From Candidatus Korarchaeum cryptofilum OPF8 (GTDB lineage Archaea > Korarchaeota > Korarchaeia > Korarchaeales > Korarchaeaceae): a DNA stretch of 32,000 nucleotides. Positions 1,429 through 31,785 of the stretch are shown one piece after another. The first letter of the stretch is position 1. Each line of letters begins with the position of its first letter. The position numbers and the translations under genes are program-made. Location: the NCBI RefSeq assembly GCF_000019605.1, contig NC_010482.1, positions 570,001 through 602,000 of the forward strand. The letters run 5' to 3'. The notes below the pieces were generated by a model. That model worked only from the letters and a program-made list of their open reading frames with translations. It was not told where the DNA came from and did not search any database.

Positions 1429-2385
1429 ATGGTATCGAAGTTCGCGGATATGCTGATAGACCTGCTCCTAAAGAAGGGAGTGAAGGAGATAGAGCCTAAG
1501 CTCGATTATGATTATGGGGTAAGTTATTATGAATCTTTAGGTATTTCTCGTGATGATTTCCCGAATTTAAATGATATTCTGATCGAGCTTGAGAGGAAGG
1601 GGATATTGAAAGGGACTAAAGTGGGGACCATACCCACCTGCCCGAATTGCGGCTCCCACAAGCTGATATTGAGGCTTCTCTGCCCGATCTGCGACTCGCC
1701 GAATATAAGGAGGGTGGAGGCTATCCATCACATATCTTGCAATTTCACCGCTCCCTCGGACATGTTCTCATCGGGGGAGATCCTGAGGTGCCCGAATTGC
1801 GGTAAGCCGTTGAGGGCAATAGGAGTCGATTACAATAAGTATCAGAACGTGATATATTGTGAGAATTGCAAGAGAGTATCTATCTCCCCCAAGCTAATCT
1901 TCATCTGTTCCGATTGCGGGGAGTCCATGAGTGAGGGCGAGTTAGATCTGAAGCCCCTATTGAGGTATGAGGTCATCGAGGAGAGGTTGCTCAAGCCCTC
2001 GCTCGAGAGAGCTATATCCGAGGGGCTCGAGAGGAGGGGGGTGGAAGTCAAGCATCCCAGTGAAGCCATAGGTGCCTCAGGCCTGACTCAGAGGTTCTCG
2101 CTCTCAGTTAAGGGAGGGGATTCGGAAAGATTCATAGACATCGTTGAATCTAGCGAGGGCGTGGGGGAGGAGAAAGTCCTAGCTCTATTCGGGAAGCTCT
2201 TCGATATATCAGCAAAGGGAGGCGTGCTAGTAGCGATACCCAGAGCTACTCAAGAGGCGAAAACCCTAGCTAAGAGCTTAAACATAGAGATAGTTGAGGC
2301 ATCGAACTTGGATGAGGCATTGACGAAGCTCCATTCCCTGATAAAGGAGGAGAAGGGGAAGGATCGCCGAGAGGTGGTAGGGTGA
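1429..2385 (+). CDS. Multi-zinc-ribbon protein, paralogue 1 (wHTH-like N-terminus, five CxxC pairs, alpha/beta C-terminal domain; TackOD1-like?)
   Basis: 318 aa. Cys motifs are C71PNC, C85PIC, HHISC104, C121PNC, C144ENC and C160SDC. The N-terminus has LIELERKGIL (wHTH-wing-like). It is collinear with the next ORF, including GVDY and the C-terminal G.SG...F..V...D.V...AK...LV pattern. Confidence 0.55.
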   Translation: MVSKFADMLIDLLLKKGVKEIEPKLDYDYGVSYYESLGISRDDFPNLNDILIELERKGILKGTKVGTIPTCPNCGSHKLILRLLCPICDSPNIRRVEAIHHISCNFTAPSDMFSSGEILRCPNCGKPLRAIGVDYNKYQNVIYCENCKRVSISPKLIFICSDCGESMSEGELDLKPLLRYEVIEERLLKPSLERAISEGLERRGVEVKHPSEAIGASGLTQRFSLSVKGGDSERFIDIVESSEGVGEEKVLALFGKLFDISAKGGVLVAIPRATQEAKTLAKSLNIEIVEASNLDEALTKLHSLIKEEKGKDRREVVG

Positions 2386-2389
2386 TCCC

Positions 2390-3331
2390 ATGCACGAGAG
2401 GGCCCTGAGGCTCATCGACCTGATAATAAGCGAGGCCTTAGATGAGATAAGGCCGAGTTTCGATCCCCTGAAGGGTTACGAGTACTGCTTGAGGGGGGAG
2501 TGCGAGGGAGTAGGGGAGGCCCTAGAGTATCTATACGAGAGAGGGTATCTCAGGAAGGAGTTGCATGATAGAGTTGCTAGCTGCCCGAATTGCGGATCCG
2601 AGGTATTCCTTCTGAGGGCTAAATGCCCTTACTGCGGTTCATTGAACTTCTCTAAGGGCATAGTAATAGAGCACTTGAGCTGCGGTTACTCAGGGCTCGA
2701 GGAGGAGTTCATGAGTCCTGATGGGAGGAGGATATGCCCGAAGTGCGGGAAGGAACTGAAGGCTCCTGGGGTAGATTACATCAGAGTAGCTGACATTTAC
2801 AGATGTGCATCTTGCAAGGAGGCCTTCTCAGTTCCCTTATATTCTTATAGATGTCTGAATTGCGGTCATGAGGGCCCAATGATAGAGCTGGTCCCCAAGG
2901 AGGTCTACAAGTATCTGGTCGTCAGGGAGGCCTTTGAGAGCGATCCTATTAGCAGGAAGATCCTCGATATCGTGAGGAAGCTTGCTGATATAGGATATAG
3001 GGTAGAGGGCCCTAGAGCTAGAGTTAAGGGGAGATCCGGCGCAGAATACGATTTCACGATAGCTGTATGGTTAGAGGGATCTGATGAGCCCATAGCAGTA
3101 CTGGATTTCGTCAGAGGTCCTATTGATGATGAGAGACTCCTCTCATTCTTCGCCAAGTCCCTCGATGTCATGGCGAAGGAGAGGATATTAGTTACGCAAG
3201 CGAAGGACAGCTTAATGGAAGCGAAAGCGAGTAGGTTGGGCATAAGGGTCTTCGAGCTGGAGGATGAGGATCTCGTAGGGAAGATAGGGGAAGTGCTGCT
3301 TTCCCTGCATGTAAAAGGGAGTGAAACTTGA
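2390..3331 (+). CDS. Multi-zinc-ribbon protein, paralogue 2 (same architecture as 1429-2385)
   Basis: 313 aa with CPNC, CPYC, EHLSC, CPKC, CASC and CLNC at positions equivalent to paralogue 1. GAGGTGGT lies upstream of ATG 2390, which is only 4 nt after the previous stop. Its own stop overlaps the GT2 start. Confidence 0.55.
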   Translation: MHERALRLIDLIISEALDEIRPSFDPLKGYEYCLRGECEGVGEALEYLYERGYLRKELHDRVASCPNCGSEVFLLRAKCPYCGSLNFSKGIVIEHLSCGYSGLEEEFMSPDGRRICPKCGKELKAPGVDYIRVADIYRCASCKEAFSVPLYSYRCLNCGHEGPMIELVPKEVYKYLVVREAFESDPISRKILDIVRKLADIGYRVEGPRARVKGRSGAEYDFTIAVWLEGSDEPIAVLDFVRGPIDDERLLSFFAKSLDVMAKERILVTQAKDSLMEAKASRLGIRVFELEDEDLVGKIGEVLLSLHVKGSET

Positions 3332-4830: not shown

Positions 4831-5694
4831 ATGCTCAGAGGATTAGGCGATGGCATTCAAGTGCTCCCGGGGAGCCCCTCAACTCTCTTCATCCCTTCAT
4901 CGGATGGCTACTACATAATAGATCCGGGATCTTCCGAGGAGAGGAGAGCTGATATAGAGGCTCAGGGGAAGATAAAAGCTGTTCTGATAACTCACTCCCA
5001 CTCAGATCATATATTAGCCGCTAGGGATTTGAGATCCGAACTAGGCGTTTTCGCTCCCCTCTCCGAGACCCCCTTCATAGAGTCCCCGGAGCTCAGGGAG
5101 GCCACTACGTTCGGGGGTTACGCTCCCTGGAACTTGATATTCCACGTAGAGGCAGTTCCCCTGAAAGTGGATAATCCATTCAAGCTGCCCTTCAATTTAG
5201 ATGGGATAGAGGCGATTCCCCTACCCGGCCATACATTCGGGCAAGTGGGTTATGTAGCCAGAGGGATTTTGTACGCTGCCGATTCCTTCTTCGGAGATAA
5301 ACTCCTGAAGAACGTTGTGATCCCTTACTTCTTGGATTTCGAGACCGCTATGAGTACTATAGAGTTCTTGAGGGATAATGCGAGGGAATTCGAGAAGATA
5401 GTCCCCTCACACGGGCCTATAGTCGAGGGGAAGAGGGCTATAGAGCTCCTAGAGATGAACATGAGGGCGATGGAATCGATAAGGGAGAAGGTGATATCGA
5501 TCCTCAGGGGGAGGAAGATGTGCGTCGAAGCTCTATCAGCTAGGATATTGAGGGAGGGAGGTGCTGAACTGACCCCGGGATCTGTAATACTCTCCTCAGT
5601 GACTATAAGGTCCCTGCTCTCCAGGCTCTATGAGAGGGGCATAGTGGATGCTGAAGCTAGTGAGGAAGGCATACTCTGGAAGCTCAACGATTGA
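4831..5694 (+). CDS. Metallo-beta-lactamase-fold hydrolase with C-terminal wHTH-like tail
   Basis: 287 aa with VLITHSHSDH (HxHxDH), PLPGHTFGQ and VPSHGP. The C-terminus has LLSRLYERGIV...GILWKL (winged-helix-like). It starts 34 nt after the GT2 stop on the same strand. Confidence 0.75.
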   Translation: MLRGLGDGIQVLPGSPSTLFIPSSDGYYIIDPGSSEERRADIEAQGKIKAVLITHSHSDHILAARDLRSELGVFAPLSETPFIESPELREATTFGGYAPWNLIFHVEAVPLKVDNPFKLPFNLDGIEAIPLPGHTFGQVGYVARGILYAADSFFGDKLLKNVVIPYFLDFETAMSTIEFLRDNAREFEKIVPSHGPIVEGKRAIELLEMNMRAMESIREKVISILRGRKMCVEALSARILREGGAELTPGSVILSSVTIRSLLSRLYERGIVDAEASEEGILWKLND

Positions 5695-7423
5695 GGAAGC
5701 CCATCAGACGGTCCAGGATACCGGCTCTAGCCTTCATCTCCACTAGAGCTGGATGAATCGGATCCCTGAGATCGAACTTGAGGTCAATAAGTTGCTTTTC
5801 ATCCTTAACAGTGACCTGAAGCAGCGGATGTTCATATCTATAGCTCATCACCCTCACCTCTCCCCCTACCGCTCCCCTAACTATCCTCTCAACGGTCTCC
5901 TTCAGGATCCTGGGCTCTACCTCCATTGAACCATCCTCAAAGGAGTAGCGAACCACGAAGAGGAACATCCCCATCCGGTCCATGCCATTCAAATGGAGGA
6001 AAGCATTCACTCTCCCCCTCCTTCCCTTGAAGAGCGACTCAGGTTTTATCTTCCATAAGATCTCACTGGGGTTCCTCTCAAAATCCAGTCTTAGGCTCAC
6101 TCCCAAGTTGTATTTCGAGGATAGCTCCATCTCAGCCTCCCTTATTATATCTTCCAGGCATCCCTTTCCCAGGAGGATCCCCTCATCCCCCTTCAGGAGG
6201 AAGGAGAGGCAAGCATCACTACCCTCGAACTTACAGAAGAGCAGATATCCAGAGCTCTTCGGATCGTAAGCTGCTCTCTCAACTAGCAGCGACATATCCG
6301 GGGATCCCCTGAGATCGTTCAGTTTGAAGACCGAGAACTTCCATGAGCTCCCTCTCCTCGATTTGACGTAGAGCAGGGAGTCATCCACATCATAATCGAG
6401 CTCATCTGCATTCAATATGCGCTTCAATGCGCCTTCATCAACTTTCTTACTCAGGATATGCACTTCACCGCTGGAAGCATCGTAAGAGACGTTCAATACC
6501 ACGAAATTTATGGTCAGGGTCATGATGAAGCTCACGCGAGTCTCACCATCCCTCTCCACCACTCTGTAAGATCTAGCGATATCCTCCATGGATAGCTCGA
6601 TCATGGAGGGATCTACGGAGGTTATCCTCGAGATCTCCCTTATGACGTTCCTCCTCATTTCCTCTAATCCCGGGAGCTTCACCCTATTCATCGCTCCAGA
6701 GTACCTGTTGACCCTGATGAGCTCCAACTCATCGCCCATCTTCACTATGAAGTTAGCGTAGCCATCATCTGATCCCCTCGCTAGGATCTCGATTCCTACA
6801 GATGCCTTCTTTTTATCGAACAGGGCATCCCATGACCTCGTTATAATCCTCCTCCCGGCCCCTTGATCCGAATTCTTGAGGGACTCCAAAACAGTGGCTT
6901 CTAGTTCATCCAGCGGTATTGGCTTCAATGAGACTCTCCTTCCCCTTTCACTCAGCTCCGCCTCTCCGATCTCCCTGTCTCCTAACTTCAGGGAGTACTT
7001 GAGCTTCCTCGCTATGAGGACGGTTTCAGCATTCAATACTTTAACTGAACTCTTGGGGACCCTCAGGGACTCCGAGAGGGCTTCTAATAAAAATTCTCTA
7101 GCTTCTCCCCTGGATATCTCGCTATTAACCTCTAACTCGATCTCCCCACCTAATTCGAAGCTGAGGTAGTCCGAAGCCCTGAAATCGGTCAATTTGGGTT
7201 TTGGGGAGTTCAAGACGAGGATCTTACCGCTCTTATACAGATATGGGACGAAATCCTTCCTCCCGGATCTATTCGTATAACTCACTTGCCAGTTAATGAG
7301 GACTCCGTAATCGACTGAAGCCCATTTGAGCTCAAATTTGACCTCAGAGGGATCTATTCCGCTCTTCATAACCTCAGAATCTAAGGAAATGCTCAAGTTC
7401 TTGGGTATCAGGACGATCTCCAT
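5684..7423 (-). CDS. Uncharacterised cytoplasmic protein made of about 6-7 PepSY-like helix+beta modules (partner of the BrxL-like ATPase)
   Basis: The ORF track gives 5684-7480. I prefer ATG 7423-7421 (MEIVLIPKNL...) because GGTGGAG sits 6 nt upstream and the longer version overlaps the upstream gene by 73 nt. There is no signal peptide or TM segment. Repeated modules open with amphipathic helices: ISRGEAREFLLEAL, LDELEATVLESL, LEEMRRNVIREI, LEDIIREAEMEL and LKETVERIVRGA. Confidence 0.5.
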   Translation of the reverse strand: MEIVLIPKNLSISLDSEVMKSGIDPSEVKFELKWASVDYGVLINWQVSYTNRSGRKDFVPYLYKSGKILVLNSPKPKLTDFRASDYLSFELGGEIELEVNSEISRGEAREFLLEALSESLRVPKSSVKVLNAETVLIARKLKYSLKLGDREIGEAELSERGRRVSLKPIPLDELEATVLESLKNSDQGAGRRIITRSWDALFDKKKASVGIEILARGSDDGYANFIVKMGDELELIRVNRYSGAMNRVKLPGLEEMRRNVIREISRITSVDPSMIELSMEDIARSYRVVERDGETRVSFIMTLTINFVVLNVSYDASSGEVHILSKKVDEGALKRILNADELDYDVDDSLLYVKSRRGSSWKFSVFKLNDLRGSPDMSLLVERAAYDPKSSGYLLFCKFEGSDACLSFLLKGDEGILLGKGCLEDIIREAEMELSSKYNLGVSLRLDFERNPSEILWKIKPESLFKGRRGRVNAFLHLNGMDRMGMFLFVVRYSFEDGSMEVEPRILKETVERIVRGAVGGEVRVMSYRYEHPLLQVTVKDEKQLIDLKFDLRDPIHPALVEMKARAGILDRLMGFLNR

Positions 7424-8877
7424 CTGAACTCCACCTCGAGCTCGTTGGAATATTCGTGAGGAAGCTTCAGCCTCAACCAATCCCTCACTAGCTTCCTCAT
7501 CTCTATCGCGATATTCACTATCCTCTCCATGGTCTCCCTATCCCTGACCTTGAGGTCGGGGTAGATCAGCTTTATAGCCCCGGAGACGAGCCTTATCAGG
7601 GCCCTCTCATCCCTTATACTGACGTTCCCGAACTTCATGAAGCTCCTCGCGATTGTTGAGGCATCGAACTTCCTCATCTCATGCAGCCAGTATGATATGA
7701 GATCCAAGGAGAGGCCCTTCCCTCTCGCTATATGCTCCTGCGAGCTCCTTATCTTCGGGAGCTTCCAGCCAGGTAATATGCCATGTATCCTGTCCATCAA
7801 GGCTGTGTCCCTGGCGAACTCCGGAAGGAAGCTATCGATGTCGCGGGGCGAGCTGGGTATACTCTCAACGTTTCCGATGAAGACGAGGGAACAATCGCTC
7901 GATACAAGCTTCCCTCCCCTCTCGTAATTCCCGCTCTCCATATAGTCCTTGAGCTTCCCTATCATCTCCTCAGTCCCGCTCAAGCTCAAGTAATTGATCT
8001 CATCGAATACTACGGCATCCATAAGGCCTATGAGCCCTATTGTCTTCGTCAGCTTATTGTAGAAGAGTTCGCTGGGGGAGGCCCTCCCTCCCGATATTAC
8101 CCTGACCATGTGGGAGATGTTCTTGTAGAGATAGCTCTTCCCCGAAGCCCTGGGCCCGAACTCCATCATATTCACGTTGCACTCTATGAGGGGGACCAGC
8201 CTCATCAGATAGAGGATCTTCTGCTCGAAATCATAAGAGCTGGGATTGAGACCCAAACTCTGTATTAGGATATCCATCCACTCCTCATCAGTGAAATGGG
8301 GCCTCGCCCCTCGGAAGTATTCGATATCGAAGCTGCTTATCTCATATGGATAGAACTCCACCATCAGTACGGGCTCTGATCTCTTATCCCCATATCTTCT
8401 CTCATCATCGAAGATCAGCTTCCCTATCCCCCAGACACCGTTCCTAAGCAGGTTCTCATGCTCCTCCAGTATCTTGGGATCTATCATAGCGTTCTTGAGG
8501 TTCAGGACGGGTATCTCGAGCCTATGGACCCCTGACTTTATATCAGTCACTACTTTGAAATCGTCCAGTATGAACTGCTCCCCCTCACTCATGAGCTTAT
8601 TCAATACGACGTCTTTCTCCTCGGGCTCCGGCCTCAGCTCCCTCAAGCGCTCGTGAATTTGGGAGGAGCATTGGGATAGAGGTTTATCGCTGCATTCCTT
8701 CAGGATCAGATACTCCTCTATATAACGCGGGATCTTATAAGCGGAGAGGTTCAAGTGGAATCCCTTCTCAACCACGCAGCTGGAATCGAAGAATATCAAA
8801 AGCTTTCTCTCCAGATCCCTCGATAATGTCGATTCTGAGATGAACTCCCTATCCTGTTCCTTCATCAGATCGAACAC
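7408..8877 (-). CDS. BrxL-type (TIGR02688/Lon_2-like) AAA+ ATPase without a Lon protease domain
   Basis: 489 aa. N-terminal region: KIPRYIEEYLI. ATPase region: FTDEEWMDILIQSLGL, Walker A FGPRASGKSY (nt 8134-8157), ISGGRASPSELFYN, Walker B AVVFDEINYL, KDYMESGNYERGG, LVFIGN and MDRIHGILPGWKLPK. All are collinear with BREX BrxL as I remember it. The track start is GTG 8877. The TATA-like CAATTTTTATAAG (rc of 8888-8900) fits a leaderless ATG at 8865 (MKEQDREF) better. Confidence 0.75.
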   Translation of the reverse strand: MFDLMKEQDREFISESTLSRDLERKLLIFFDSSCVVEKGFHLNLSAYKIPRYIEEYLILKECSDKPLSQCSSQIHERLRELRPEPEEKDVVLNKLMSEGEQFILDDFKVVTDIKSGVHRLEIPVLNLKNAMIDPKILEEHENLLRNGVWGIGKLIFDDERRYGDKRSEPVLMVEFYPYEISSFDIEYFRGARPHFTDEEWMDILIQSLGLNPSSYDFEQKILYLMRLVPLIECNVNMMEFGPRASGKSYLYKNISHMVRVISGGRASPSELFYNKLTKTIGLIGLMDAVVFDEINYLSLSGTEEMIGKLKDYMESGNYERGGKLVSSDCSLVFIGNVESIPSSPRDIDSFLPEFARDTALMDRIHGILPGWKLPKIRSSQEHIARGKGLSLDLISYWLHEMRKFDASTIARSFMKFGNVSIRDERALIRLVSGAIKLIYPDLKVRDRETMERIVNIAIEMRKLVRDWLRLKLPHEYSNELEVEFRWRSS

Positions 8878-8932
8878 TACTCGATTTCTTATAAAAATTG
8901 ATCCTGTCTTAACTTAATAGGGACCAAAGGGC

Positions 8933-14389: not shown

Positions 14390-15598
14390 ATGATAGATGA
14401 GATATCGAGGAGGATAGATGAACTGAGGGAAGATATGGTATCCTCTATGATTGAGATGATCCCTCTAGGAGGTATAGGGCCTGAGAACGGGGGAGATGGT
14501 GAGATAAGGAAGGCTGAGTTCATAGAGAGGCTAGCGAGGGGCATGGGGCTTCATGTGGAGAGAGTCGATGCTGAGGATAGCAGAGTCCCCTCCAGGATCA
14601 GGCCGAACATAATAGTGAGGTATGAGGGGAGGAGCGGGAGGAACATATGGATAGTCAGCCACATGGACGTAGTCCCCCCTGGGGAGGGCTGGAGCTCCGA
14701 TCCCTTCAAGCCCATAATCAAGGAAGGGAAGATATATGGGAGAGGGACTGAGGACGATGGGCAGGCCATAATATCCTCTCTTTACGCTGTGAAGGCTTTA
14801 GCGGATCTCAAGGTAAGGGCGGATTACGGCCTGAACCTGGCTATAGTATCGGATGAGGAGACTGGGAGTAGGTACGGGATATTGCACTTGATATCCGAGG
14901 GGATATTCTCCAAGGAAGATCTCATACTAGTCCCCGACGCCGGCAATAAGGACGGGACTATGATAGAGGTAGCTGAGAAAGGCATACTCTGGATCAGGGT
15001 GACTGTGAGGGGGAAGCAGGCTCACGCGAGCACTCCGGAGAAGGGATTGAATGCCCATAGGATAGGGATGAGGCTCGCTCTAGCTATAGATGATGCCCTC
15101 CACTCTAAGTTCAATGAGGTAGATGAGCTCTTCGACCCCCCTGTGAGCACATTCGAGCCCACGAAGAGGGAAGGGGGCGTGGAGAACGTGAACACGGTTC
15201 CCGGGACCGATATAGTATACTTCGATTGCAGGATCCTCCCTAGATACGATATAGATGAAGTCCTGGAGACTGTTAAGAAAATAGCGAAGGCTTTCGAGGT
15301 TTACGGAGCTGATATAACTGTGGAGGAAGTTGAGAGGAGCGAGCCCTCATTCACGGACCCGGAATCGGAGATAGTCAGGAGGATAAAGAGAGCAGTGAAA
15401 CTATTGAGGGGGAAGGAAGCCAAGCCGATGGGAATAGGAGGAGGTACATGTGCTGCTTATCTTAGGAGAGCCGGTCTCCAAGCTGTTGTCTGGATGACGA
15501 CCGAGGAGACAGCTCATCAACCCGATGAGTATTGCGTAATAAATAATATGGTCGAGGACGCTAAGGTGATGGCATCCCTGGTCCTCGATGAGCTATGA
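14390..15598 (+). CDS. M20-family metallohydrolase (ArgE/DapE/ACY1-like deacylase)
   Basis: 402 aa with SHMDVVPPGEGWSSDPF, GRGTEDDGQ and VSDEETGS, which are metal-ligand motifs of peptidase family M20. Confidence 0.8.
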   Translation: MIDEISRRIDELREDMVSSMIEMIPLGGIGPENGGDGEIRKAEFIERLARGMGLHVERVDAEDSRVPSRIRPNIIVRYEGRSGRNIWIVSHMDVVPPGEGWSSDPFKPIIKEGKIYGRGTEDDGQAIISSLYAVKALADLKVRADYGLNLAIVSDEETGSRYGILHLISEGIFSKEDLILVPDAGNKDGTMIEVAEKGILWIRVTVRGKQAHASTPEKGLNAHRIGMRLALAIDDALHSKFNEVDELFDPPVSTFEPTKREGGVENVNTVPGTDIVYFDCRILPRYDIDEVLETVKKIAKAFEVYGADITVEEVERSEPSFTDPESEIVRRIKRAVKLLRGKEAKPMGIGGGTCAAYLRRAGLQAVVWMTTEETAHQPDEYCVINNMVEDAKVMASLVLDEL

Positions 15599-16074
15599 TC
15601 GAGCTCCCTCAAATGAGACCTTTCAATGCTCAACTTTTTATTGAGGAATCCCTGAGTAAAGGTATGTCAGAGGTGAGGCGTTCCAGGAGTAAGGGCTTCG
15701 TGGGTTTCCTGTTCGTAGCTTTCATGTTCCTCGGGTTGGGAGTGGGAATCCTAATAGGCGAAGTCGCCCCCGCGTTATTCGTTGGTATGGGGCTCGGTTT
15801 CTTGAGCATGGCTATCCTAGATGCTATTATCAAGGAGCCCGCGGAGGAAGAATCTGAGTATGAGAGAGCTGTAGAATCTTATGTGGGGAAAGGTGGATTC
15901 TTAGGGAATATAATCCTGGCCCTGCTCGGTATAGGTTTCATCCTAGGGGGATTATCCATCCTCACAGGCTTCGAGATAGAATGGAGAATCCTCGGTGGAG
16001 CCCTCATAATATTGCTCGGTATCTGGTTCATAATATTGGCTATGAGAGCTATTGCGAGCTCGAAGTCTAGTTGA
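15595..16074 (+). CDS. Small membrane protein (about 4 TM), unknown function
   Basis: 159 aa. Its ATG overlaps the M20 stop (ATGA at 15595-15598). It has two hydrophobic hairpins separated by an acidic linker (EPAEEESEYE). Confidence 0.5.
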   Translation: MIELPQMRPFNAQLFIEESLSKGMSEVRRSRSKGFVGFLFVAFMFLGLGVGILIGEVAPALFVGMGLGFLSMAILDAIIKEPAEEESEYERAVESYVGKGGFLGNIILALLGIGFILGGLSILTGFEIEWRILGGALIILLGIWFIILAMRAIASSKSS

Positions 16075-16234
16075 TCTCATCGAACTTCATGCTAAGCTTT
16101 TAGATTCGTCGGCGATAGCTCGAGATTTGATCATCGAGATTCGCTGAGAGGTCATATTGGTGGCATGCACTGGATGACCTGCTCAACGATCTAGCGAAAG
16201 ATCCTAAAAATTATCGGGGAGTGAGGGATAAAAC

Positions 16235-16248
16235 TTTATTATATTTTA
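16235..16248 (+). promoter_or_regulatory. TATA-like box for the 16263 gene
   Basis: CTTTATTATATTTT is centred about 22 nt upstream of ATG 16263. This argues against the GTG 16221 start in the ORF track. Confidence 0.4.
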
Positions 16249-16262
16249 CCTCTTCAGTCCAT

Positions 16263-17492
16263 ATGCCCATCAAGGATATAGTGGGTGGTAAGCTCCCGAA
16301 GGGCTCTCAGGTGGAGCTGGAGGGTACGATAACTGAGCTTTTACCGATATTCCTGATGGGAGGATCCTCCTATGAGAGGTTCTCGCTGGAGGATGGTACT
16401 GCGAGAATAACGGTAATCATGCCATCATCCGATATCTACCTCCTCCCGGGTGATAGGGTCAGAGTGGTTGGGAGAGTCAGGCCGTGCCCTTACGCTCCAG
16501 CTGTGGATTGCATCGAGACCGAGAGCGAGTACGTGGAGATAAAGGAGTGGAAGTGGATAGAGCCGAGTAGGAGGAGGAGTGAGAACAGGAAAGGCCCCTT
16601 CAATATGAGCGTGCTCCTCCACATGACTAGGCTGGATGAGGAAGTGATAAGGGGGATAGTTGAGACAGATCTAGATCCCGTTAGGATAAGGGAGAGGTTT
16701 GAAAGCTGTATAAATTCAGGAGAGAGTTGCGATCACTTGCTAGATATGCTCTCCGCTATGACGATGTACTCCATATTCCTGAGGGATTTGGATGCAGCTA
16801 GCTCAGTTAGAATGACCCTGAAATTATTGGAAACTCTACCTATCGGTAAAATACTGAACTTGCTGTCCGATATGGTGGAGACTCTAGTGAGTAGGGAGGG
16901 CCTGGCCCCCTATCTATCTGGAGAGGGTAAGGGGATCGTCGAGAGGTATCCTGTGGCCGATGAGTCGAGCTTGAAGGAAGTAGTTGAGCTCAGAGGCCTG
17001 GCTGATCGCCTAATAAATGATTTAAGGGAGGGTAAGAAGGAATTCATAATTCTTGAATTCTCGAGGGGCGAGGAACTGGAGAAGATAAGGAAGGTCGTTG
17101 AGATAGTCGCTGGGATAACTGGATCCAAATTGCTCCTACTATATGCATCCTCAGTGGCTGAGGATACCCATAATATCCTCTCCGAGATAAAGGAGACTTC
17201 TAAAAACTTGAAGGAGGATGAGAGAGCTATCCTGTACTTAGAAGCCCCTGAGCTCCTATTTCCGAATGAGAAGATGCTTGGTCTGCTGAAATTACCCGAT
17301 GAGGCTCTTGAAGGAGTATCTGATCTCAAATCGGAGTTCTCTAAGGTATTCAGGGAGCTCTCCAGCAAGATATTGATAGTGGCCGCTACTGTCTCCAGCT
17401 CTATGGTGGATGGGAACTCCATAGGGAGGCCCGTGGTAATACCGCTTGAGACCGGCGTTGAGATCGCTAGCGATATGGAGTACAGCATCTAA
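16263..17492 (+). CDS. OB-fold protein with a C-terminal degenerate (P-loop-less) classical AAA domain
   Basis: The N-terminus, GSQVELEGTITEL...FSLEDGTARITVIM...LLPGDRVRVVGRV, is an OB/tRNA_anti-like pattern. The C-terminus has AAA spacing: FIILEFSRGEELEKI in place of Walker A, then AILYLEAPELLF 60 aa later in place of hhhhDE, then ILIVAATVSSSMVDGNSIGRPVVIPLE 47 aa later, resembling VIAATNRPD.LD.A..RPGR. Confidence 0.45.
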   Translation: MPIKDIVGGKLPKGSQVELEGTITELLPIFLMGGSSYERFSLEDGTARITVIMPSSDIYLLPGDRVRVVGRVRPCPYAPAVDCIETESEYVEIKEWKWIEPSRRRSENRKGPFNMSVLLHMTRLDEEVIRGIVETDLDPVRIRERFESCINSGESCDHLLDMLSAMTMYSIFLRDLDAASSVRMTLKLLETLPIGKILNLLSDMVETLVSREGLAPYLSGEGKGIVERYPVADESSLKEVVELRGLADRLINDLREGKKEFIILEFSRGEELEKIRKVVEIVAGITGSKLLLLYASSVAEDTHNILSEIKETSKNLKEDERAILYLEAPELLFPNEKMLGLLKLPDEALEGVSDLKSEFSKVFRELSSKILIVAATVSSSMVDGNSIGRPVVIPLETGVEIASDMEYSI

Positions 17493-17574
17493 AAAATGTT
17501 TGTCCCTCTCAATAACGGGGCTCATATTAGTATCCCTGGAGCTCATCCCTACGCTGGGCGCTCCTTTAAGAGTA

Positions 17575-17607
17575 AGTTACCCCCCTAAGTTAGTTAGGGG
17601 GGTAACT
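17575..17607 (+). promoter_or_regulatory. Perfect 11-bp GC-rich inverted repeat (hairpin) immediately 5' of an ATG
   Basis: AGTTACCCCCC (17575-17585), an 11-nt loop TAAGTTAGTTA, then GGGGGGTAACT (17597-17607). The 3' arm contains the only SD-like G-run before ATG 17610. Confidence 0.6.
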
Positions 17608-17655
17608 AGATGTACTTCGACCGAGCCTAAGACCAAGAGGGAAGACCTCTTCGAT

Positions 17656-18648
17656 ATGGAGGCGGAGCTAAGGGAACTCTCAGATGGCCTCAAGTGGGAG
17701 AAGCTTGTTATAGTGACTGGTTTAAGGAGATATGGGAAGACATCGCTCATATTGACATATCTGAATGAGGAGAAGCTCGACAACATCTTCCTCGACTGCA
17801 GGCTCCTCCCTCCAGGGATGATAAGCATGGGCTCCTTCCTCGAACTATTGGAAGCTGAGCTCACCAGGAAGTCATGGGCTAGAAGGATATTGAGCAGAGT
17901 TGAGGGCATAAGCATATCCGAAATAGGGATAAGATTCAAGGAGAGGGATCTCAACTCCCTAATAAGTGCCTTACATGCATTGGAGGGGAAGATCTTAGTT
18001 ATAGACGAAGCTCAGGAGCTGAGGAGATCGAGGCATAGGTTCGATTCTATAATAGCTTACGCTTACGATCACCTCGACCTCAAGATAATCTTATCGGGCT
18101 CTCAAGTCGGCTTATTATATAGGTTCCTCAGGGTGGACGATCCCGAAGCCCCTCTTTACGGCAGACCCTTCAAGGAGGTGAGGATGAGGAAGCTGAGCGA
18201 TGAAGAAGCCATGGATTTCCTGAGGAAGGGATTTGAGCAGGCTGGAATGAAAGTAAGTGATGATATACTGGAGGAAGCCAGGAGGTTCGATGGGATAATA
18301 GGATGGCTCACTTACTTCGGCTTCTCGATGATCAGCAACAGGGAGTCCGTGGAGATTATAGAGAGGAGGGCCTCTAAGCTCGCCATAAGCGAGCTCGAGC
18401 ATGCCCTGAGGATATACGGGTTGGCTGAGGCAAGGTACAGGGAAGCGCTGAAAGTGATAGCTACTTTAGAGCGTGCGAGGTGGACCCGGATAAAGAGGGG
18501 GATTGAGGCGAGGATCGGTAAGATACCCAGCAATACGCTATCCTCCATCTTGAGCAACTTAGTGGATTCCGGATTCCTGGAGAAGACGGAGGAAGGATAC
18601 AAGATAGCTGATCCAGTTTTGAGGAGCGGAATTTTGAGATATTGGTGA
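17656..18648 (+). CDS. Archaeal ATPase family protein (Arch_ATPase/ATPase_2 + C-terminal DUF234 wHTH)
   Basis: Walker A is TGLRRYGKTSL and Walker B is LVIDEAQEL. The C-terminus has LSSILSNLVDSGFLEKTEEGYKIADPVL (DUF234-like). The ORF track starts at 17446, but that extension overlaps the upstream gene and crosses the hairpin. ATG 17656 is the first in-frame ATG. The ancestral start may be ATG 17610, which is out of frame (see findings). Confidence 0.75.
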   Translation: MEAELRELSDGLKWEKLVIVTGLRRYGKTSLILTYLNEEKLDNIFLDCRLLPPGMISMGSFLELLEAELTRKSWARRILSRVEGISISEIGIRFKERDLNSLISALHALEGKILVIDEAQELRRSRHRFDSIIAYAYDHLDLKIILSGSQVGLLYRFLRVDDPEAPLYGRPFKEVRMRKLSDEEAMDFLRKGFEQAGMKVSDDILEEARRFDGIIGWLTYFGFSMISNRESVEIIERRASKLAISELEHALRIYGLAEARYREALKVIATLERARWTRIKRGIEARIGKIPSNTLSSILSNLVDSGFLEKTEEGYKIADPVLRSGILRYW

Positions 18649-23637: not shown

Positions 23638-24699
23638 ATGAAAAAGAGAGATGAGGGGATCAATGATGCGGATCTCGCTAAGCTCTCTCCCCGCATAATA
23701 CCTTACGGTAAATACAATGAAGTCTTAGAGGGACTCTCCAGGGACCTATTTTCAAATATAATAGAGCTCGTGGAGAGGGCTGAGCTCTACATCCCCAAGC
23801 TGAGGGAGATATTACCGATAACTCAGCTGAATAATGAGCTGATAAGCCTTAGGGTCGCCGCCGTCGATGCAGGATCCAACGGGAAGGATCTAATAATAGG
23901 CTATCAGCCGATAAGCATAGCTGTAGGAGCTGCCTTCAAGGACGGGATCAAGATATGCGATCCCCTCCTAGCTACTCTGAAGCCCCCATCATCCAGCCTA
24001 GATGATGAGGAAGGCGTTAAGCTCTCATCCATAATAGGCTACTATTTGATGTACAACTTAGCATCCGTTCTCCTAGATAAGAGCGATCTAATATTGATAG
24101 ATGGGCCCCTCTTCCTGCCCAGATCATACTACGCGCCCAGGGGCAGGAGCTACTCCAACTCCTACTTGGAGGTGTATGAAGCTACTCTGCGAACCCTCTC
24201 ATCCCTTCTCAGGGAAGCCGAAGCATCGGGCAAATACATTTTGGGCGTTGTGAAGAGGATAAGGAGCCATTACATTTCCCAATGGCTCGGGATAGATGGC
24301 CTCTCGGATTCCCTGATATCCTCGCTCTCAATAAAGGAGGGAGAGGCTTTAGGCCCTATACCGATCAGCGGCGGATGGGAGGAGGTCGCCAGTTATCTGG
24401 GAGATGCCAGGAGCTTCAGGCCCTGGGCCATATTCTTGAGGAGGGGGAGAGCCCCTATAAGGCTAGATCTCCCCGAATATTCTGTAGATAAAGCTTACGC
24501 TCTAGCTTCCTACATATATTCAATATCGGAGCCGAGCACAGGGCTTCCGATGCCCATATTGGCCGTGGATAGGCTCTCCAAGGTCACGGATAAGCAGAGC
24601 TCCCTCATATACAGGATGATTTTGAGGGAGGCTAGGAAGAGAGGAATTAACTCCGAGAAATTGGCTCTATTCTCGATTCAGAGGGGTGAAATTGATTGA
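23638..24699 (+). CDS. nurA: NurA-domain nuclease-like protein
   Basis: 353 aa with LRVAAVDAGSNG (first catalytic Asp strand), DLILIDGPLFLP (second Asp) and the C-terminal GLPMPILAVDRLSKV (NurA-type P..L..AD/H motif). Its stop overlaps the start of the HerA-like gene. Confidence 0.6.
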   Translation: MKKRDEGINDADLAKLSPRIIPYGKYNEVLEGLSRDLFSNIIELVERAELYIPKLREILPITQLNNELISLRVAAVDAGSNGKDLIIGYQPISIAVGAAFKDGIKICDPLLATLKPPSSSLDDEEGVKLSSIIGYYLMYNLASVLLDKSDLILIDGPLFLPRSYYAPRGRSYSNSYLEVYEATLRTLSSLLREAEASGKYILGVVKRIRSHYISQWLGIDGLSDSLISSLSIKEGEALGPIPISGGWEEVASYLGDARSFRPWAIFLRRGRAPIRLDLPEYSVDKAYALASYIYSISEPSTGLPMPILAVDRLSKVTDKQSSLIYRMILREARKRGINSEKLALFSIQRGEID

Positions 24700-27188
24700 G
24701 AGAAATTGTGGGGCACGTGATATCAAGATCAACCCCCAAAAAGATATTATTCGTGGTTCTGAAGAACGCTAAAGTATCCCTGGGAGATTTCTACGTCATA
24801 GATCATCCCTGGGAGGGAGTTCCGGTCTTCATAAGGGTTAGGGATATTCAAACAATAAATGAGGAAGTCGATCTAGGGAAAGCCGGTCTTCTTGCGAGCA
24901 GCTCAGGCTTGATCTCAGATTACAGTAGCGATCTTGAGTACATGATAGCTGAATGCGAGGTATTGGGCTATAGGTCGGAATCCGGGATAAGGGGACTGGA
25001 AGCCCCACCCTCGACTCTCTCCCCGGTTATGAGGCCTGATCCGAGGGAATTGAGCTCCTTCCTAACCCCCAGATTCTCCCAGGGGCTCCCCCTCACGATA
25101 GGCAGGATAAAGGGGACTAGGGTTCCGTTCTCCATAGATATAGCTGCGATAGCGAGGGGCCATATGTTCGTCACCGGGATGACCAGGAGCGGGAAGAGCG
25201 TCACAGGAGACACTATAATAATAATATATGATTCCTTGAGGAGGAGGTATTTCATAGGCCCGGTGGAAAGGTTCTTCGATAGCCTGCTACCGAGAGAGGC
25301 CCCAGATGAAGTTCTCCTGGATCTCAGGGAGTTAGGGTATGAGACCCTCTCTCTCTGGCCCGATTTCATTCCCAGATGGTCCAAAGTAGCTGGGATATAC
25401 AGGCACAAGCTGGATAAGGATATTTACGAGATTGAGACATCCACCGGGAGGAAGGTAAGGGTAACGGAGGATCACAGCCTCTTGGTCTCCGATGGGACTA
25501 ATTTGCTCAAGGTCACACCCAAGAAACTAGCTGGGATGAGCGAGAGTTATTTGATAGTCCCTAGAGGAGCTTCCTTAAGGCCAGCTGGCTATCAAGCGCA
25601 TCTAGATAGGCTCCTGGGCATTAGCTTAGCTTCAGGAGTTGCTTTGAAGGATGGAGTCCTCATAATGGATCCCGATATAGCTGAAGTGAAGTTAGCTTGC
25701 CTCGAAGCTGGAGTGGATTTCATCACATTGAAGAACAGGGGCATCTTCGTGAGATCTCCCGAATTAGCTAAGATAGTTTCCTCAGGCCTCAGCTCCCTCC
25801 TGAATCTCCCCGAGGAGGTCGAAGAACTTGGGGTGAGGTTTTATCCTCTAGCTAGGGCCCTCAGGGAGCTCCTCCTCAGGACGGCAATTCACGAGAAGGG
25901 CAACCTATCCCTCCTCATGCTGGAGGAACAGAGAGCCCTAATCCTATCGACGATACTATCTATTCTGGGCGTATCCACGGTTAAATTCTGCCCAAAAGGC
26001 TTCCTAGTGGATTCCATCTCATTCAGGATGCTCATGGATCGGCTGGAGAATTGGAAGAAGCTCGGGATGGACGGAGGAACGCTGCTCAAGGAAGTCAGGA
26101 AAGTGGAGGGGCTCATCTACAGGGCATCCGTCAACCTGGAGAGAGTGGTGAGCGTCAGGAAGGTATATACGAATGCGAAATATGTTTACGATCTCGACGT
26201 GCCCGATACTCAGAGCTTCCTAGCTAATGGAGCATTCGTCCACAACAGCAGCTTCGTCTCGAGCTTGATAGCGAAGTCCTCTGACCTCAAGCCCAGGCCC
26301 AGGTTCCTCATCCTCGATAGGAGAGGGGAATATGAGAGGCTCTCGAGCAAGGGGGGAGCGATATACGATTACTCAGCATTCCTGCCGAGGAGCATGAGCC
26401 CCGGAGCTCTTGCCAAGAGGTTAGGGTATAAGCCCGGGACCCTCTCCCATCAGCTCCTGCTCCTGGCGTTGAGGGATGCCGATGGAGATGCCTCGGAAGC
26501 TCTGAGGAAGCTCAGGCAGGTGGCTAGGGAGATGAGGGTGAGGCCCTCCTTGGTCGGGGAGATAGAATCCAGGCTGAAGAGGGAGATACCGAAGCTCGGG
26601 AATGGAAAGGAGCTCAGCATCGTCGATGAGGTTAGGAAGAACCCCATAGTAATAGTGGACCTCTCATCGGACAGGAGGTATGAGGATCAGTTCCTAGCCA
26701 TAAGGAACATAGTTGAGGAACTATCGAATTACGCCGTATCGAGGAGGAGGGAGGGGGACTTCGCCCTGATAGTTGTCGTTGAAGAAGCTCAGTACGTGAT
26801 CCCGGAGAGGGGCTTCTCCATAGTCGGGGATCCCTACGATTCCGGGGTAGCTCAATCTTTGATAGAGGCGATAAGTCAGGCCGGGGGCTACAACTTGGGA
26901 TTCGTGATCGTGACGCAGAGACCGGCCTACGTCAGCAAGAGTGTCATAAGCCAGGCGAATACCGTAGTAGCGTTCAGATTGAGGAACGGGAACGATCAGG
27001 AGGCTATATCTAAGTACACGGAGGTGGAGGAGGTATCATCCTACCTCCCCACGCTCTCGGATCACGAAGCCCTCATATGGGGGATGGGGAGCTGCGTCCC
27101 CTTCCCCGTTCAGGTGGAGGTGGAAGTAGTTGCCTTACCATCGAAGTCATCGAGCTCACCCGAGAGGGCCTGGGAGAAGATGTTATAA
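24696..27188 (+). CDS. herA: HerA/DUF87-family (FtsK-HerA superfamily) ATPase precursor, interrupted by an intein in the Walker A loop
   Basis: 830-aa precursor with a HAS-barrel-like N-terminus (ILFVVLKNAKVSLGDFYVIDHP...VFIRVRDI). The Walker A motif is split as GMTRSGK|...|SSF. After removing residues 168-517, GMTRSGKSSFVSSLI is restored. Walker B is ALIVVVEEAQYVIP. FVIVTQRPAYVSKSVISQANTVVAFRLRNGNDQEAI is HerA-type. The TTG start at 24696 has GGGGTGA 5-6 nt upstream. Confidence 0.8.
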   Translation: MREIVGHVISRSTPKKILFVVLKNAKVSLGDFYVIDHPWEGVPVFIRVRDIQTINEEVDLGKAGLLASSSGLISDYSSDLEYMIAECEVLGYRSESGIRGLEAPPSTLSPVMRPDPRELSSFLTPRFSQGLPLTIGRIKGTRVPFSIDIAAIARGHMFVTGMTRSGKSVTGDTIIIIYDSLRRRYFIGPVERFFDSLLPREAPDEVLLDLRELGYETLSLWPDFIPRWSKVAGIYRHKLDKDIYEIETSTGRKVRVTEDHSLLVSDGTNLLKVTPKKLAGMSESYLIVPRGASLRPAGYQAHLDRLLGISLASGVALKDGVLIMDPDIAEVKLACLEAGVDFITLKNRGIFVRSPELAKIVSSGLSSLLNLPEEVEELGVRFYPLARALRELLLRTAIHEKGNLSLLMLEEQRALILSTILSILGVSTVKFCPKGFLVDSISFRMLMDRLENWKKLGMDGGTLLKEVRKVEGLIYRASVNLERVVSVRKVYTNAKYVYDLDVPDTQSFLANGAFVHNSSFVSSLIAKSSDLKPRPRFLILDRRGEYERLSSKGGAIYDYSAFLPRSMSPGALAKRLGYKPGTLSHQLLLLALRDADGDASEALRKLRQVAREMRVRPSLVGEIESRLKREIPKLGNGKELSIVDEVRKNPIVIVDLSSDRRYEDQFLAIRNIVEELSNYAVSRRREGDFALIVVVEEAQYVIPERGFSIVGDPYDSGVAQSLIEAISQAGGYNLGFVIVTQRPAYVSKSVISQANTVVAFRLRNGNDQEAISKYTEVEEVSSYLPTLSDHEALIWGMGSCVPFPVQVEVEVVALPSKSSSSPERAWEKML
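25197..26246 (+). mobile_element. Intein (350 aa, Ser1 ... His-Asn / Ser+1) with a degenerate LAGLIDADG-type endonuclease insert
   Basis: Block A is SVTGDTIIII, starting at AGC 25197. Block B is KVRVTEDHSLLV (TxxH). Blocks F/G are YVYDLDVPDTQSFLANGAFVHN, ending at AAC 26244-26246, followed by Ser. The central LDRLLGISLASGV looks like a LAGLIDADG helix in which both acidic residues are lost. Confidence 0.85.
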
Positions 27189-30219: not shown

Positions 30220-31010
30220 CCGAACTTCCTCGCTAGCAAGTAGGAGAGGTAGTAGAGTATTAAGAAAGGTACTGAGAGGGCTATCATGGAGACCGGAGTT
30301 GGATCCGGAGTAACGATAGCTAGTATGACGAGGACTATGAAGAAGATGTAACCGAACTTCTCCCTGAGGGTCTCGGGCCTCAGGATGTCCAAGTAAGATA
30401 GTACCGCTATTATCAATGGGAAGGTGAAGAAGAGTCCCACGATGACCAAGCCCGTTATTATGAATGAGAAGAACTGCTCAATAGAGAATATCAGCTTTAT
30501 GCCGCTCGCTATATATATCAGCGAGAGGAAGAATATGGTCAGGGGCATGACGACGAAATAAGCGTAAATCACGCCTGATGAGAAGAGAATGGAAAATCCT
30601 AGGACGAATGGAATTATTATCCTCTTCTCCCTCTCCTCCAAACCGGGCTCAACGAAATCGTAGATCTGCTTCGCTATATAGGGAGAGGATATGACCAAGC
30701 CGAAGAGGAGGGAGAGCATCAAAATTACTTCTATAGAATCTATCCAGCTGTAAGCTATGAGATCTATATTTACCTCCTTTATCCCGAAGATATTGGCTAG
30801 GGGCCTCAGGATCGGGTTATTCAAGTCAGTCATATCCCTCCTCACTCTATCCATTATCGAGAAGATGAGGGGCCTGTAACTATGAGATGAGGGATCTGGG
30901 AAAATGGAGACAGCTATCGACGATATTATTACTGAGATCAATGCTCTCCTCAGCCTCTCCAAGAGCTCTATTATATGATCCTGAACTGGGAGCTCTTTAT
31001 CCTTGCTCAT
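30204..31010 (-). CDS. tatC: Twin-arginine translocase subunit TatC
   Basis: 268 aa. HIIELLERLRRALISVI matches the H..ELR.RL opening of TatC. Six TM segments follow, with the characteristic PGL.E.E loop (FVEPGLEEREKR). Confidence 0.85.
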   Translation of the reverse strand: MSKDKELPVQDHIIELLERLRRALISVIISSIAVSIFPDPSSHSYRPLIFSIMDRVRRDMTDLNNPILRPLANIFGIKEVNIDLIAYSWIDSIEVILMLSLLFGLVISSPYIAKQIYDFVEPGLEEREKRIIIPFVLGFSILFSSGVIYAYFVVMPLTIFFLSLIYIASGIKLIFSIEQFFSFIITGLVIVGLFFTFPLIIAVLSYLDILRPETLREKFGYIFFIVLVILAIVTPDPTPVSMIALSVPFLILYYLSYLLARKFGQHVT

Positions 31011-31785
31011 ATTCTCCCATCAACTCCTCATGCGAAGCTTTAGCTACTACTACCATCTCGGGGCTGCTCCCTGAGAAGGGAACTATCTCATAGTCCGGGT
31101 AGATCTCGCATACTGAGAAGCTGCGGCTTCTCAGTATATACCTTATCTCCCTAGGGGTGAAGAGTCTCAGCCTTATCTTATGATCCATGATATCCACGCT
31201 CCCCCTCGATAGATCTATTATAGACCAGCCTATATCGAGAGCAGCTATCTGATCCTTGAGATCTATCTTCCATGAGCTCTCCTTTATAGCTAGAGAGTTC
31301 CCGGATTTCCTGAGCTCGGGGATCGGCATCTCATAGTAGACCCTCTTCTCTATCACTCCCAAGATATTCCAGGTGTCGAATATGAAGAGACCTCCGTCCA
31401 CTAAGCTCCTCCTCGCAGCTTCTAGGAACTTCACGAGCGATTCATCCTCAGTGAAGTAACTTATCACACCGTACATAGCTATCGCTACATCGAACCCTCT
31501 CAATTCCATGTTAGAGGCATCTCCTACTAAGAATTTTACGTTCTCCATCCCCTTAGCTTTTTCCCTCGCTCTATTAATCATATCCTCAGATACATCTATG
31601 CCTACTACTTCATATCCCCTCCTACCGAACTCTATGCTGTGCATCCCAGTCCCGCATCCCACATCTAGGACTCTCCTCGCCCTCCCCTTGTAAAATTTTT
31701 TAATCACTTCCTCCAAAAAGTCGACCTCTTCACTCACGTTTCTATTCGCATAAAGCAGATCGTAGTATTGAGCGTAACGATCCAT
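30997..31785 (-). CDS. Class I SAM-dependent methyltransferase
   Basis: 262 aa with RVLDVGCGTGMHS (motif I), VVGIDVS, FLVGDA and GGLFIFD. Its stop overlaps the tatC start by 14 nt. Confidence 0.85.
   Translation of the reverse strand: MDRYAQYYDLLYANRNVSEEVDFLEEVIKKFYKGRARRVLDVGCGTGMHSIEFGRRGYEVVGIDVSEDMINRAREKAKGMENVKFLVGDASNMELRGFDVAIAMYGVISYFTEDESLVKFLEAARRSLVDGGLFIFDTWNILGVIEKRVYYEMPIPELRKSGNSLAIKESSWKIDLKDQIAALDIGWSIIDLSRGSVDIMDHKIRLRLFTPREIRYILRSRSFSVCEIYPDYEIVPFSGSSPEMVVVAKASHEELMGEYEQG

Follow-up and report, generated by a model that had tools for sequence, protein, structure and literature searches.

The 32,000-nucleotide stretch of the Candidatus Korarchaeum cryptofilum OPF8 genome analysed here (NC_010482.1, positions 570,001 to 602,000; hereafter the window) carries on its reverse strand two overlapping genes, gene A and gene B, which encode a short-form AAA+ ATPase of the BrxL family and a 579-residue partner protein, respectively. 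To our knowledge, the BrxL family is known only from bacteriophage exclusion (BREX) anti-virus systems. We show here that gene A and gene B are strictly coupled wherever the surroundings of the partner gene can be read, that gene A is homologous to an ATPase that forms rings on DNA, and that no BREX genes accompany the pair. The ATPase is of a known kind; what is new is the two-gene composition and the partner itself.

The maximal open reading frame (ORF) of gene A extends over 7408-8877 on the reverse strand and would yield 489 residues from a GTG codon. Judging from the sequence, the true start is likely the ATG at 8865-8863, which gives a 485-residue product identical to the NCBI K. cryptofilum protein P0004 (100% identity, 100% coverage), deposited under the name 'BREX system Lon protease-like protein BrxL'. 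A TATA-like element, which an initial annotation of this DNA had placed 5' of the pair, is indeed present as TTTTTATAA at 8897-8889, and its centre falls ~28 nt (about 25-30 nt) upstream of this ATG, a spacing that fits an archaeal TATA box and a predicted leaderless mRNA. The family assignment itself is borne out by Pfam, TIGR02688, PADLOC and the Protein Data Bank (PDB) entry 8emc alike: the product scores 100.2 bits against BrxL_N (cut-off 28.2) and 363 bits against BrxL_ATPase (cut-off 25), reaches 413.4 bits against NCBIfam TIGR02688 (cut-off 329.3) with residues 35-469 collinear with model positions 9-445 of 449, and is matched by all five BrxL models of PADLOC. The closest solved structure is that of Acinetobacter BrxL (8EMC/8EMH; E 3e-62, residues 7-456 of 679), the only BrxL to have been characterised, in which the BrxL_N region comprises a helix-turn-helix (HTH)-like module and an oligonucleotide/oligosaccharide-binding (OB) fold and binds DNA (PMC12839542, PMC10164562). 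All of the motifs quoted in the initial annotation occur in the translation. The product bears the Walker A GPRASGKS, the Walker B VVFDE, VFIGN as a putative sensor 1 and a conserved DRIHG, and the key residues of these motifs are invariant in two family alignments (A1 and A5) and align with those of 8emc.

No C-terminal Lon-protease-like (or HKD) domain is found in gene A, whose product ends ~20 residues past the AAA+ domain. The long-form model TIGR02653 (675 positions) is correspondingly matched over its first 452 positions only, at 289.9 bits and under its cut-off of 628.25. The absence of a Lon-like domain had been recognised before, but its description as a truncation does not hold, since the short-family model TIGR02688 is covered over its whole length. 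Of the 120 best gene A homologues, about 100 are archaeal proteins of 450-500 residues, and a short BrxL form has been described for type-4 BREX (PMC12839542); an ATPase without the Lon-like domain is therefore a known architecture. On sequence grounds, gene A is a complete, full-length short BrxL. At its 3' end the gene runs into gene B, and here the overlap, the stop and the start of the initial annotation are all correct, but the Shine-Dalgarno-like GGTGGAG lies 5 nt rather than 6 nt from the ATG. The coordinates of both genes and their features are collected in Table 1.

Table 1. Features of the BrxL-partner gene pair (window coordinates; residue numbers are those of gene B unless stated otherwise)
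Feature	Coordinates	Strand	Basis or remark
TATA-like element TTTTTATAA upstream of gene A	8889..8897	(-)	Read from sequence
Gene A, short-form BrxL-family AAA+ ATPase, 485 aa	7408..8865	(-)	ORF, database match, TIGR02688
BrxL_N domain	8413..8781	(-)	Residues 33-155 of 489-aa ORF; Pfam PF20442, E 1.2e-28
BrxL_ATPase (MCM-like AAA+) domain	7441..8367	(-)	Pfam PF13337, E 1.3e-108, profile positions 2-310 of 313
Shine-Dalgarno-like GGTGGAG	7429..7435	(-)	5 nt 5' of gene B ATG
Gene A/gene B overlap, 16 nt	7408..7423	(-)	Gene A stop TGA 7410-7408, gene B start ATG 7423-7421
Gene B, 579-aa partner, orphan family	5684..7423	(-)	ORF, family searches
Partner N-terminal conserved core	6668..7423	(-)	Residues 1-252; common to all members including short forms (alignment A2)
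R-S-W-D-x-x-F motif	6818..6838	(-)	Residues 196-202; invariant in A2, 12 of 13 in 13-sequence family alignment
Partner repeat unit A	6308..6667	(-)	Residues 253-372; helix, 4 strands, helix, 3 strands (AF2)
Four-stranded beta insert between repeat units	6158..6307	(-)	Residues 373-422; AF2, pLDDT 85-91
Partner repeat unit B	5756..6157	(-)	Residues 423-556; hhalign and AF2
Basic amphipathic C-terminal tail, ...GILDRLMGFLNR	5687..5755	(-)	Residues 557-579

The partner encoded by gene B has the length of the deposited K. cryptofilum OPF8 hypothetical protein ACB07322.1 (579 aa) and a predicted isoelectric point of 6.1. It has no above-threshold match in Pfam, NCBIfam or PADLOC and no sequence match in the PDB, where profile searches with alignment A2 (E<=1) and alignment A4 (E<=10) gave nothing above noise. 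As the initial annotation had stated, the protein carries neither a signal peptide nor a transmembrane-grade hydrophobic segment (maximum 19-residue Kyte-Doolittle value 1.37), which argues for a cytoplasmic location, and the positions conserved in an alignment of 13 partners form no recognisable catalytic constellation. Public records label it 'hypothetical protein', and some JGI/IMG records 'septum formation topological specificity factor MinE'; the latter name is spurious and traces to a far-sub-threshold match to TIGR01215 (E 0.038, 14 bits against a cut-off of 49). A weak match to DUF167, far under its cut-off, was likewise rejected. Relatives are few: a word-indexed search of 5.8 billion proteins gave three homologues, a query with a 7-sequence alignment gave the same three-homologue yield, and an exhaustive HMMER search of 1.84 billion cluster representatives, with a profile built from four sequences, gave nine clusters (at 50% identity). 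By these sequence searches, gene B represents a new, lineage-restricted protein family without a known fold.

Three parts of the partner can be told apart: a core, repeat units and a tail. Its N-terminal core is shared by all members, including short forms whose profile matches span query positions 2-275, and bears an N-R-Y-S-G motif in addition to R-S-W-D-x-x-F. The AlphaFold2 (AF2) model, built like the exhaustive search profile from four sequences, is poor over this core (predicted local distance difference test score, pLDDT, < 50) and confident over residues 210-556 (pLDDT 70-91), where its secondary structure alternates single helices with sets of three or four antiparallel strands. The initial annotation had read gene B as 6-7 tandem modules, and the helix-plus-beta rhythm that it described recurs in the model; pairwise hhalign of eight such modules, however, gives one significant pair, which is explained by a two-fold duplication of a larger unit. 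The two alpha/beta units, A and B, each of roughly 125 residues, align over 117 columns with 90% hhalign probability and E 1.6e-6, as expected for a collinear duplication. Partner lengths across the family range from 370 to 655 residues, with a single repeat unit in the short members (370-454 aa), so that the variation can be attributed to gain or loss of a whole unit. The final ~36 residues of unit B align in every member, short forms included (Y530, P533, D551), and conservation in at least 11 of the 13 partners is seen at Y49, G66, K124, V135, G148, G153, P168, R196-S197-W198-D199, F202, N239 and G243 in the N-terminal region and at Y530, P533, L535, L548, D551, L552, P558, K564 and L573 towards the C terminus. 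The tail is predicted to be helical by AF2 at low confidence; over the 13 sequences its net charge lies between 0 and +8 (+2 to +8 in 12 of them) and its best 11-residue hydrophobic moment between 0.42 and 0.76.

A PepSY-like nature had also been proposed for gene B and is not upheld: no PepSY match was obtained for the whole protein at E<=0.1 or for six isolated modules and three homologues at E<=1, the predicted location of the protein is cytoplasmic, and in Foldseek searches of the PDB with the AF2 model of unit B (residues 421-558, mean pLDDT 83) no match reached E<=0.001 and none of the 50 best-scoring listed matches was a PepSY domain. The best 29 PDB matches of that unit are all to the sliding clamp PCNA, at non-significant E values of 0.03-0.1 (probability up to 0.90), with template modelling (TM) scores of 0.20-0.26 and root-mean-square deviations (rmsd) of 10-17 A, and viral PCNAs recur among equally weak matches in BFVD. 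A clamp domain runs strand-helix-five strands-helix-three strands, an order that the helix-four strands-helix-three strands of the gene B repeat resembles. Among all PDB sequences, profiles of gene B find no clamp, and we treat the modelled resemblance as a weak lead and not as a finding. A beta-propeller fold, suggested by matches of the full-length model, was discarded as beta-meander noise (Foldseek TM about 0.1, rmsd 22-31 A).

The coupling of the two genes is conserved well beyond the window. Contigs of partner homologues and of the nearest gene A relatives were compared, and wherever they could be read the short BrxL is followed by a gene with no Pfam match. Every partner homologue with a readable context (the window, L001, L002, L084/L085, L086, L087, L088, L091, L092/L093, L094-L099 and L102) lies directly downstream of a short BrxL, with a 4-22-nt overlap or a 2-nt gap, and none is found inside a BREX or PglZ locus; in L001, L002, L084, L086, L087, L088 and L091 no called gene has a Pfam match to PglZ. 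The nearest relatives are L001 (ATPase 88% identical to that of the window, partner 581 aa, window-like synteny) and L002 (partner 579 aa, 98% identical to the window's), both with the 16-nt overlap. Another Korarchaeum sp. (L084/L085; ATPase 71%, partner 611 aa, 22-nt overlap) has the pair downstream of a Csx1 CARF-HEPN gene, at a distance of about 1 kb, and in L086 (ATPase 60%, partner 655 aa, 4-nt overlap) it sits amid PIN/MazE and HEPN-MNT genes. Metabolic neighbours surround the pair, again with 4-nt overlaps, in the Korarchaeota locus L087 (ATPase 55%, partner 401 aa) and in Thermofilum (L088; ATPase 46%, partner 370 aa). The 2-nt gap belongs to a Bathyarchaeota locus (L091; ATPase 60%, 1097 aa, partner 454 aa), and on the short contigs L092/L093 the partner (423 aa) overlaps an upstream fragment that is a BrxL C-terminus. 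The pair thus spans Korarchaeia, Bathyarchaeia and Thermofilum, with different flanking genes in different lineages. A metagenome scan with an alignment of the ATPase clade added L094-L099 and L102, all of which possess the partner, and also gave L107 (ATPase 43%), whose downstream gene matches the partner profile at E 1.6e-10. Two ATPases of the partner-linked clade are enlarged at the N terminus. That of L086 (8001-10130) has an extension of ~220 residues without a Pfam or PDB match, and that of L091 (2895-6188) one of ~610 residues with weak, sub-threshold matches to HSDR_N_2 / PDDEXK_9 and TPR. On L097 (6229-7975), a Korarchaeum-type metagenome contig, the partner is split into overlapping ORFs of 248 and 350 aa, which reflects either a frameshift pseudogene or an assembly error.

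Both the phylogeny and the rates of divergence point to a pair inherited as such. Of the 31 BrxLs placed in a neighbour-joining tree, those linked to a partner group with the ATPase of a further locus, L103, in one clade that is recovered in 200 of 200 bootstraps. Identities of ATPase and partner to the window pair, over the aligned segment, fall in step (88/74, 71/36, 60/26, 55/25 and 46/27%), and the partners are homologous by BLASTP (K. cryptofilum against L084, 36% identity, E 2e-115; against L086, 26%, E 5e-48; against L087, E 6e-6; L087 against L088, E 3e-15). The divergence of gene A and gene B is correlated and the two are co-inherited. In comparison with L001, the ratio of non-synonymous to synonymous substitution rates (dN/dS) is 0.10 for the ATPase and 0.21 for the partner; in comparison with L084, the two values are 0.16 and 0.31. 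Non-synonymous evolution is two to three times faster in the partner; values of 0.21-0.31 nonetheless mark gene B as a real, constrained coding gene. At each point on which the initial annotation had staked its two-gene module, the results go in favour of the module: gene A matches the BrxL models, gene B has an internal repeat and no known fold or function, and the two genes co-occur in other genomes outside BREX loci.

Window ORFs of at least 110 aa were scanned against Pfam, and unannotated ones against PADLOC. Consistent with the earlier statement that BREX partners are lacking over the 32 kb, no brxA, brxB, brxC, pglX or pglZ match was found among them, nor one to BrxC_BrxD or DUF6079. 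No DNA methyltransferase adjoins the pair, the sole methyltransferase of the window being a small, generic S-adenosylmethionine-dependent one 22 kb away (30997-31785). The other window genes encode an EamA transporter, two TackOD1 zinc-ribbon proteins, a GT2 glycosyltransferase, an MBL-fold hydrolase, DUF354 and DUF401 proteins, an FG-GAP surface protein, an M20 peptidase, an archaeal ATPase, a lipoate ligase, a ferritin, NurA, an intein-containing HerA, LeuA-like and Ldh_2 proteins, TatC and the small methyltransferase. The GC content is unremarkable, and tRNA and Rfam scans of the window were both empty. Three further arrangements on the forward strand merit a record of their own. At 1429-3331, tandem paralogues combine TackOD1 (Thaumarchaeal output domain 1) with zinc ribbons and have no PADLOC match, the first of them showing a borderline match to the restriction-endonuclease-like Mrr_cat (E 3e-4). 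At 15595-18648, two ORFs of 159 and 423 aa, neither with a Pfam match, are followed by the gene of an archaeal ATPase_2 protein that carries an MCM_C winged helix and weakly matches the PADLOC candidate systems PDC-S27 and PDC-S01; this could be a separate small conflict-type module. At 23638-27188, the gene downstream of NurA encodes a HerA (HAS-barrel plus DUF87) that is interrupted by an intein, Intein_splicing covering residues 229-517 of the 830-aa product.

Short BrxLs outside the partner-linked clade, of which the archaeal ones compared here are 38-44% identical to the window protein, keep different company. In one set, a 1212-1279-aa Eco57I/MmeI-type, PglX-like methyltransferase is encoded directly upstream of the short BrxL (L089, 4268-9419, Saccharolobus shibatae B12; L090, 4363-9434, Infirmifilum lucidum; L011, 6240-11857), as is also the case in many of the 16 metagenome loci of that cluster (e.g. 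L119 and L128), and in ANME-1 (L008, 2060-11440) the methyltransferase belongs to the same operon but stands about 4 kb upstream. Neither PglZ nor BrxC was recognised near these genes, and the combination looks like another minimal BrxL-based system. In a second set (L010, 3730-12231; L012, 1467-10051; about 24 metagenome loci, e.g. L112 and L160), a DUF499-family ATPase of ~1085-1148 aa lies upstream of the short BrxL and a 254-328-aa protein downstream, the latter with a (T/G)DHGY motif and no Pfam match, so that it may be a minimal PglZ-like phosphatase; L010 has in addition a DUF1156 methylase upstream. These operons resemble the DUF499-centred BREX-related systems already described, to which they add BrxL (PMC12839542). 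PglZ itself is found in L067 and, with DUF6079, in L004. In Calidithermus roseus (L022, 3285-11353), a 486-aa short BrxL comes last after VWA, Tubulin_2-like 921-aa and 707-aa proteins. The profile of the Korarchaeal partner matches nothing in these other short-BrxL operons, including the 254-328-aa downstream proteins. The earlier statement that TIGR02688 proteins sit beside PglZ holds for some members (L004, L067); in the Korarchaeal clade a single protein has taken the place of all these partners. In archaea, short BrxL is thus a module put to use with four or more distinct partner sets, of which the Korarchaeal pair is one variant.

The pair can be compared with several known systems. Like the BrxL of type-4 BREX, gene A combines a BrxL_N region (HTH-like plus OB) with an MCM-like AAA+ domain and lacks a C-terminal extension; the type-4 operon, however, has PglZ, BrxC and PAPS reductase, none of which is present here, and unlike its ATPase the Korarchaeal one belongs to a clade of its own and has a downstream partner of unassigned family. 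Gene A shares its Walker motifs (A and B) and the AAA+ motifs around them with type-1 BrxL of Acinetobacter (8EMC/8EMH). In that protein, a ring is built from the N-terminal and AAA+ domains, heptameric without DNA and hexameric with DNA in the pore; its ATPase activity is essential for phage restriction, and its Lon-like C-terminal domain serves only to join two rings tail to tail (PMC10164562). Gene A has no such domain, and no BREX partners. Other archaeal short-BrxL operons share the ATPase family and its position as last or next-to-last gene of a compact operon, but their partners differ. The AAA+ and OB regions of BrxL are structurally similar to those of the MCM helicase, although helicase activity is undemonstrated for characterised BrxL (PMC10164562). 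The modelled repeat unit of gene B resembles PCNA-type clamps in its order of elements, with a structural match that is non-significant (E >= 0.03, TM about 0.25) and unaccompanied by a sequence match. That no described system has this composition is, as far as could be searched, true of the pair itself, but short BrxLs more broadly are modular, with several archaeal partner sets. In the literature accessible to us, which leaves out most subscription journals and in which absence is not proof, we found no account of a BrxL outside BREX with such a partner, and the pair lies out of sight of the 2026 BREX survey because that survey was anchored on BrxC.

These data can be accommodated in a model that we tentatively prefer and consider almost an even call, where the pair is a BREX-independent ATPase-plus-adaptor cassette that acts on DNA, probably in defence. 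It would be a self-contained, co-transcribed and translationally coupled two-gene cassette present in a few Thermoproteota lineages. By analogy with Acinetobacter BrxL, gene A would form a hexameric or heptameric ring with double-stranded DNA in its pore and hydrolyse ATP, and gene B would have no enzymatic role but bind the ATPase as an adaptor, sensor or scaffold, and may replace, as a separate protein, the ring-joining C-terminal domain of type-1 BrxL. The cassette would dispense with PglZ, BrxC and PglX and would most likely restrict viruses or plasmids. Defence is suggested because it is the only known role of BrxL, because sister short BrxLs lie in restriction-modification-like operons, because the N-terminal extension in L091 has weak PD-(D/E)XK/HSDR_N_2 and TPR matches, because two contexts are rich in defence genes (Csx1 CARF-HEPN in L084, PIN/MazE and HEPN-MNT in L086), and because the partner evolves fast in a tiny and patchy family. 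A number of observations weigh against it. The K. cryptofilum pair has no recognisable nuclease, methyltransferase or marker of self and non-self; within Korarchaeum it stands in conserved synteny amid housekeeping genes (DUF354, DUF401, GT2, MBL-fold); the L087 and L088 contexts are metabolic; the partner matches no PADLOC model; the proposed nuclease fusion of L091 consists of sub-threshold matches only; and both genes are under purifying selection with no diversifying selection seen. Furthermore, L103 (2009-6069) has a BrxL of the same clade (49% identity) without an adjacent partner; a partner homologue with an ARSWD motif is found there on the opposite strand, convergent, 1.5 kb away and running off the contig end, and may belong to a second cassette in convergent orientation.

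Much of this contrary evidence would suit a housekeeping DNA-metabolism module, in which an MCM-like ring and its scaffold serve chromosome replication, repair or segregation and not defence. The conserved Korarchaeum synteny, the metabolic neighbours of L087 and L088, the purifying selection on both genes and the lack of a nuclease or methyltransferase in the pair all point that way, as do the structural kinship of BrxL with MCM (PMC10164562) and the weak, non-significant PCNA resemblance of the partner unit. We nevertheless think such a role unlikely, albeit the most serious of the alternatives, given that relatives of the partner are exceedingly few and patchily distributed (9 clusters in 1.84 billion proteins), that the partner retains ~25% identity where the ATPase keeps 55%, which is unusual for core replication factors, that its length varies from 370 to 655 aa by gain and loss of whole units, that the genomic position of the pair changes with lineage, and that sister short BrxLs are found in restriction-modification-like operons. 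A membrane-acting, abortive-infection form of defence, where the ATPase senses foreign DNA and frees or activates the partner, whose basic amphipathic helix then targets the membrane, is a good deal less probable. The tail is basic and amphipathic throughout the family and resembles MinD/FtsA-type membrane-targeting helices, and the partner has no catalytic motif; against this, the hydrophobic moment is moderate in several members, the best 11-residue window is not always C-terminal, and a terminal helix modelled by AF2 at low confidence could equally dock on the ATPase. We would assign a similarly slim chance to a clamp-like gene B, a multi-domain DNA-tracking scaffold of repeated helix-plus-sheet units that would be loaded, driven or sensed by the MCM-like BrxL ring, so that the two proteins form a minimal DNA-surveillance machine without methylation or PglZ.

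Two further explanations appear very improbable. Because other short BrxLs adjoin PglZ (L004, L067), the pair might be what is left of a once complete, now decayed BREX locus after the loss of pglZ, brxC and pglX. The same arrangement of two genes is seen, however, in seven or more distinct lineages and contexts and never with BREX genes; the ATPases of these pairs group in a separate clade; purifying selection acts on both genes, whose motifs are intact; and the partner is unrelated to BREX proteins. This possibility is effectively refuted already. No more credible is a protein quality-control pair, with gene A as a Lon-like unfoldase and gene B as its substrate adaptor, an idea that draws on homologue names such as 'ATP-dependent Lon protease'. 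Those names are a legacy of automatic annotation and gene A lacks a Lon protease domain, whereas the AAA+ domain of characterised BrxL is MCM-like and holds DNA in its pore and its Lon-like domain is without a catalytic dyad (PMC10164562, PMC12839542).

Overall, several BREX systems cannot restrict without BrxL, whose role has stayed obscure because it has been studied only inside six-gene complexes. A natural two-gene cassette of a short BrxL and one dedicated partner, as we tentatively propose for K. cryptofilum, would be the simplest setting in which to see how a BrxL ring acts on DNA. Should the clamp-like architecture of the partner prove true, the pair would reveal what BrxL does alone, the least understood step of BREX. 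Finally, the survey of short BrxLs given here widens the range of BREX-related systems past those found by anchoring on BrxC or PglZ.

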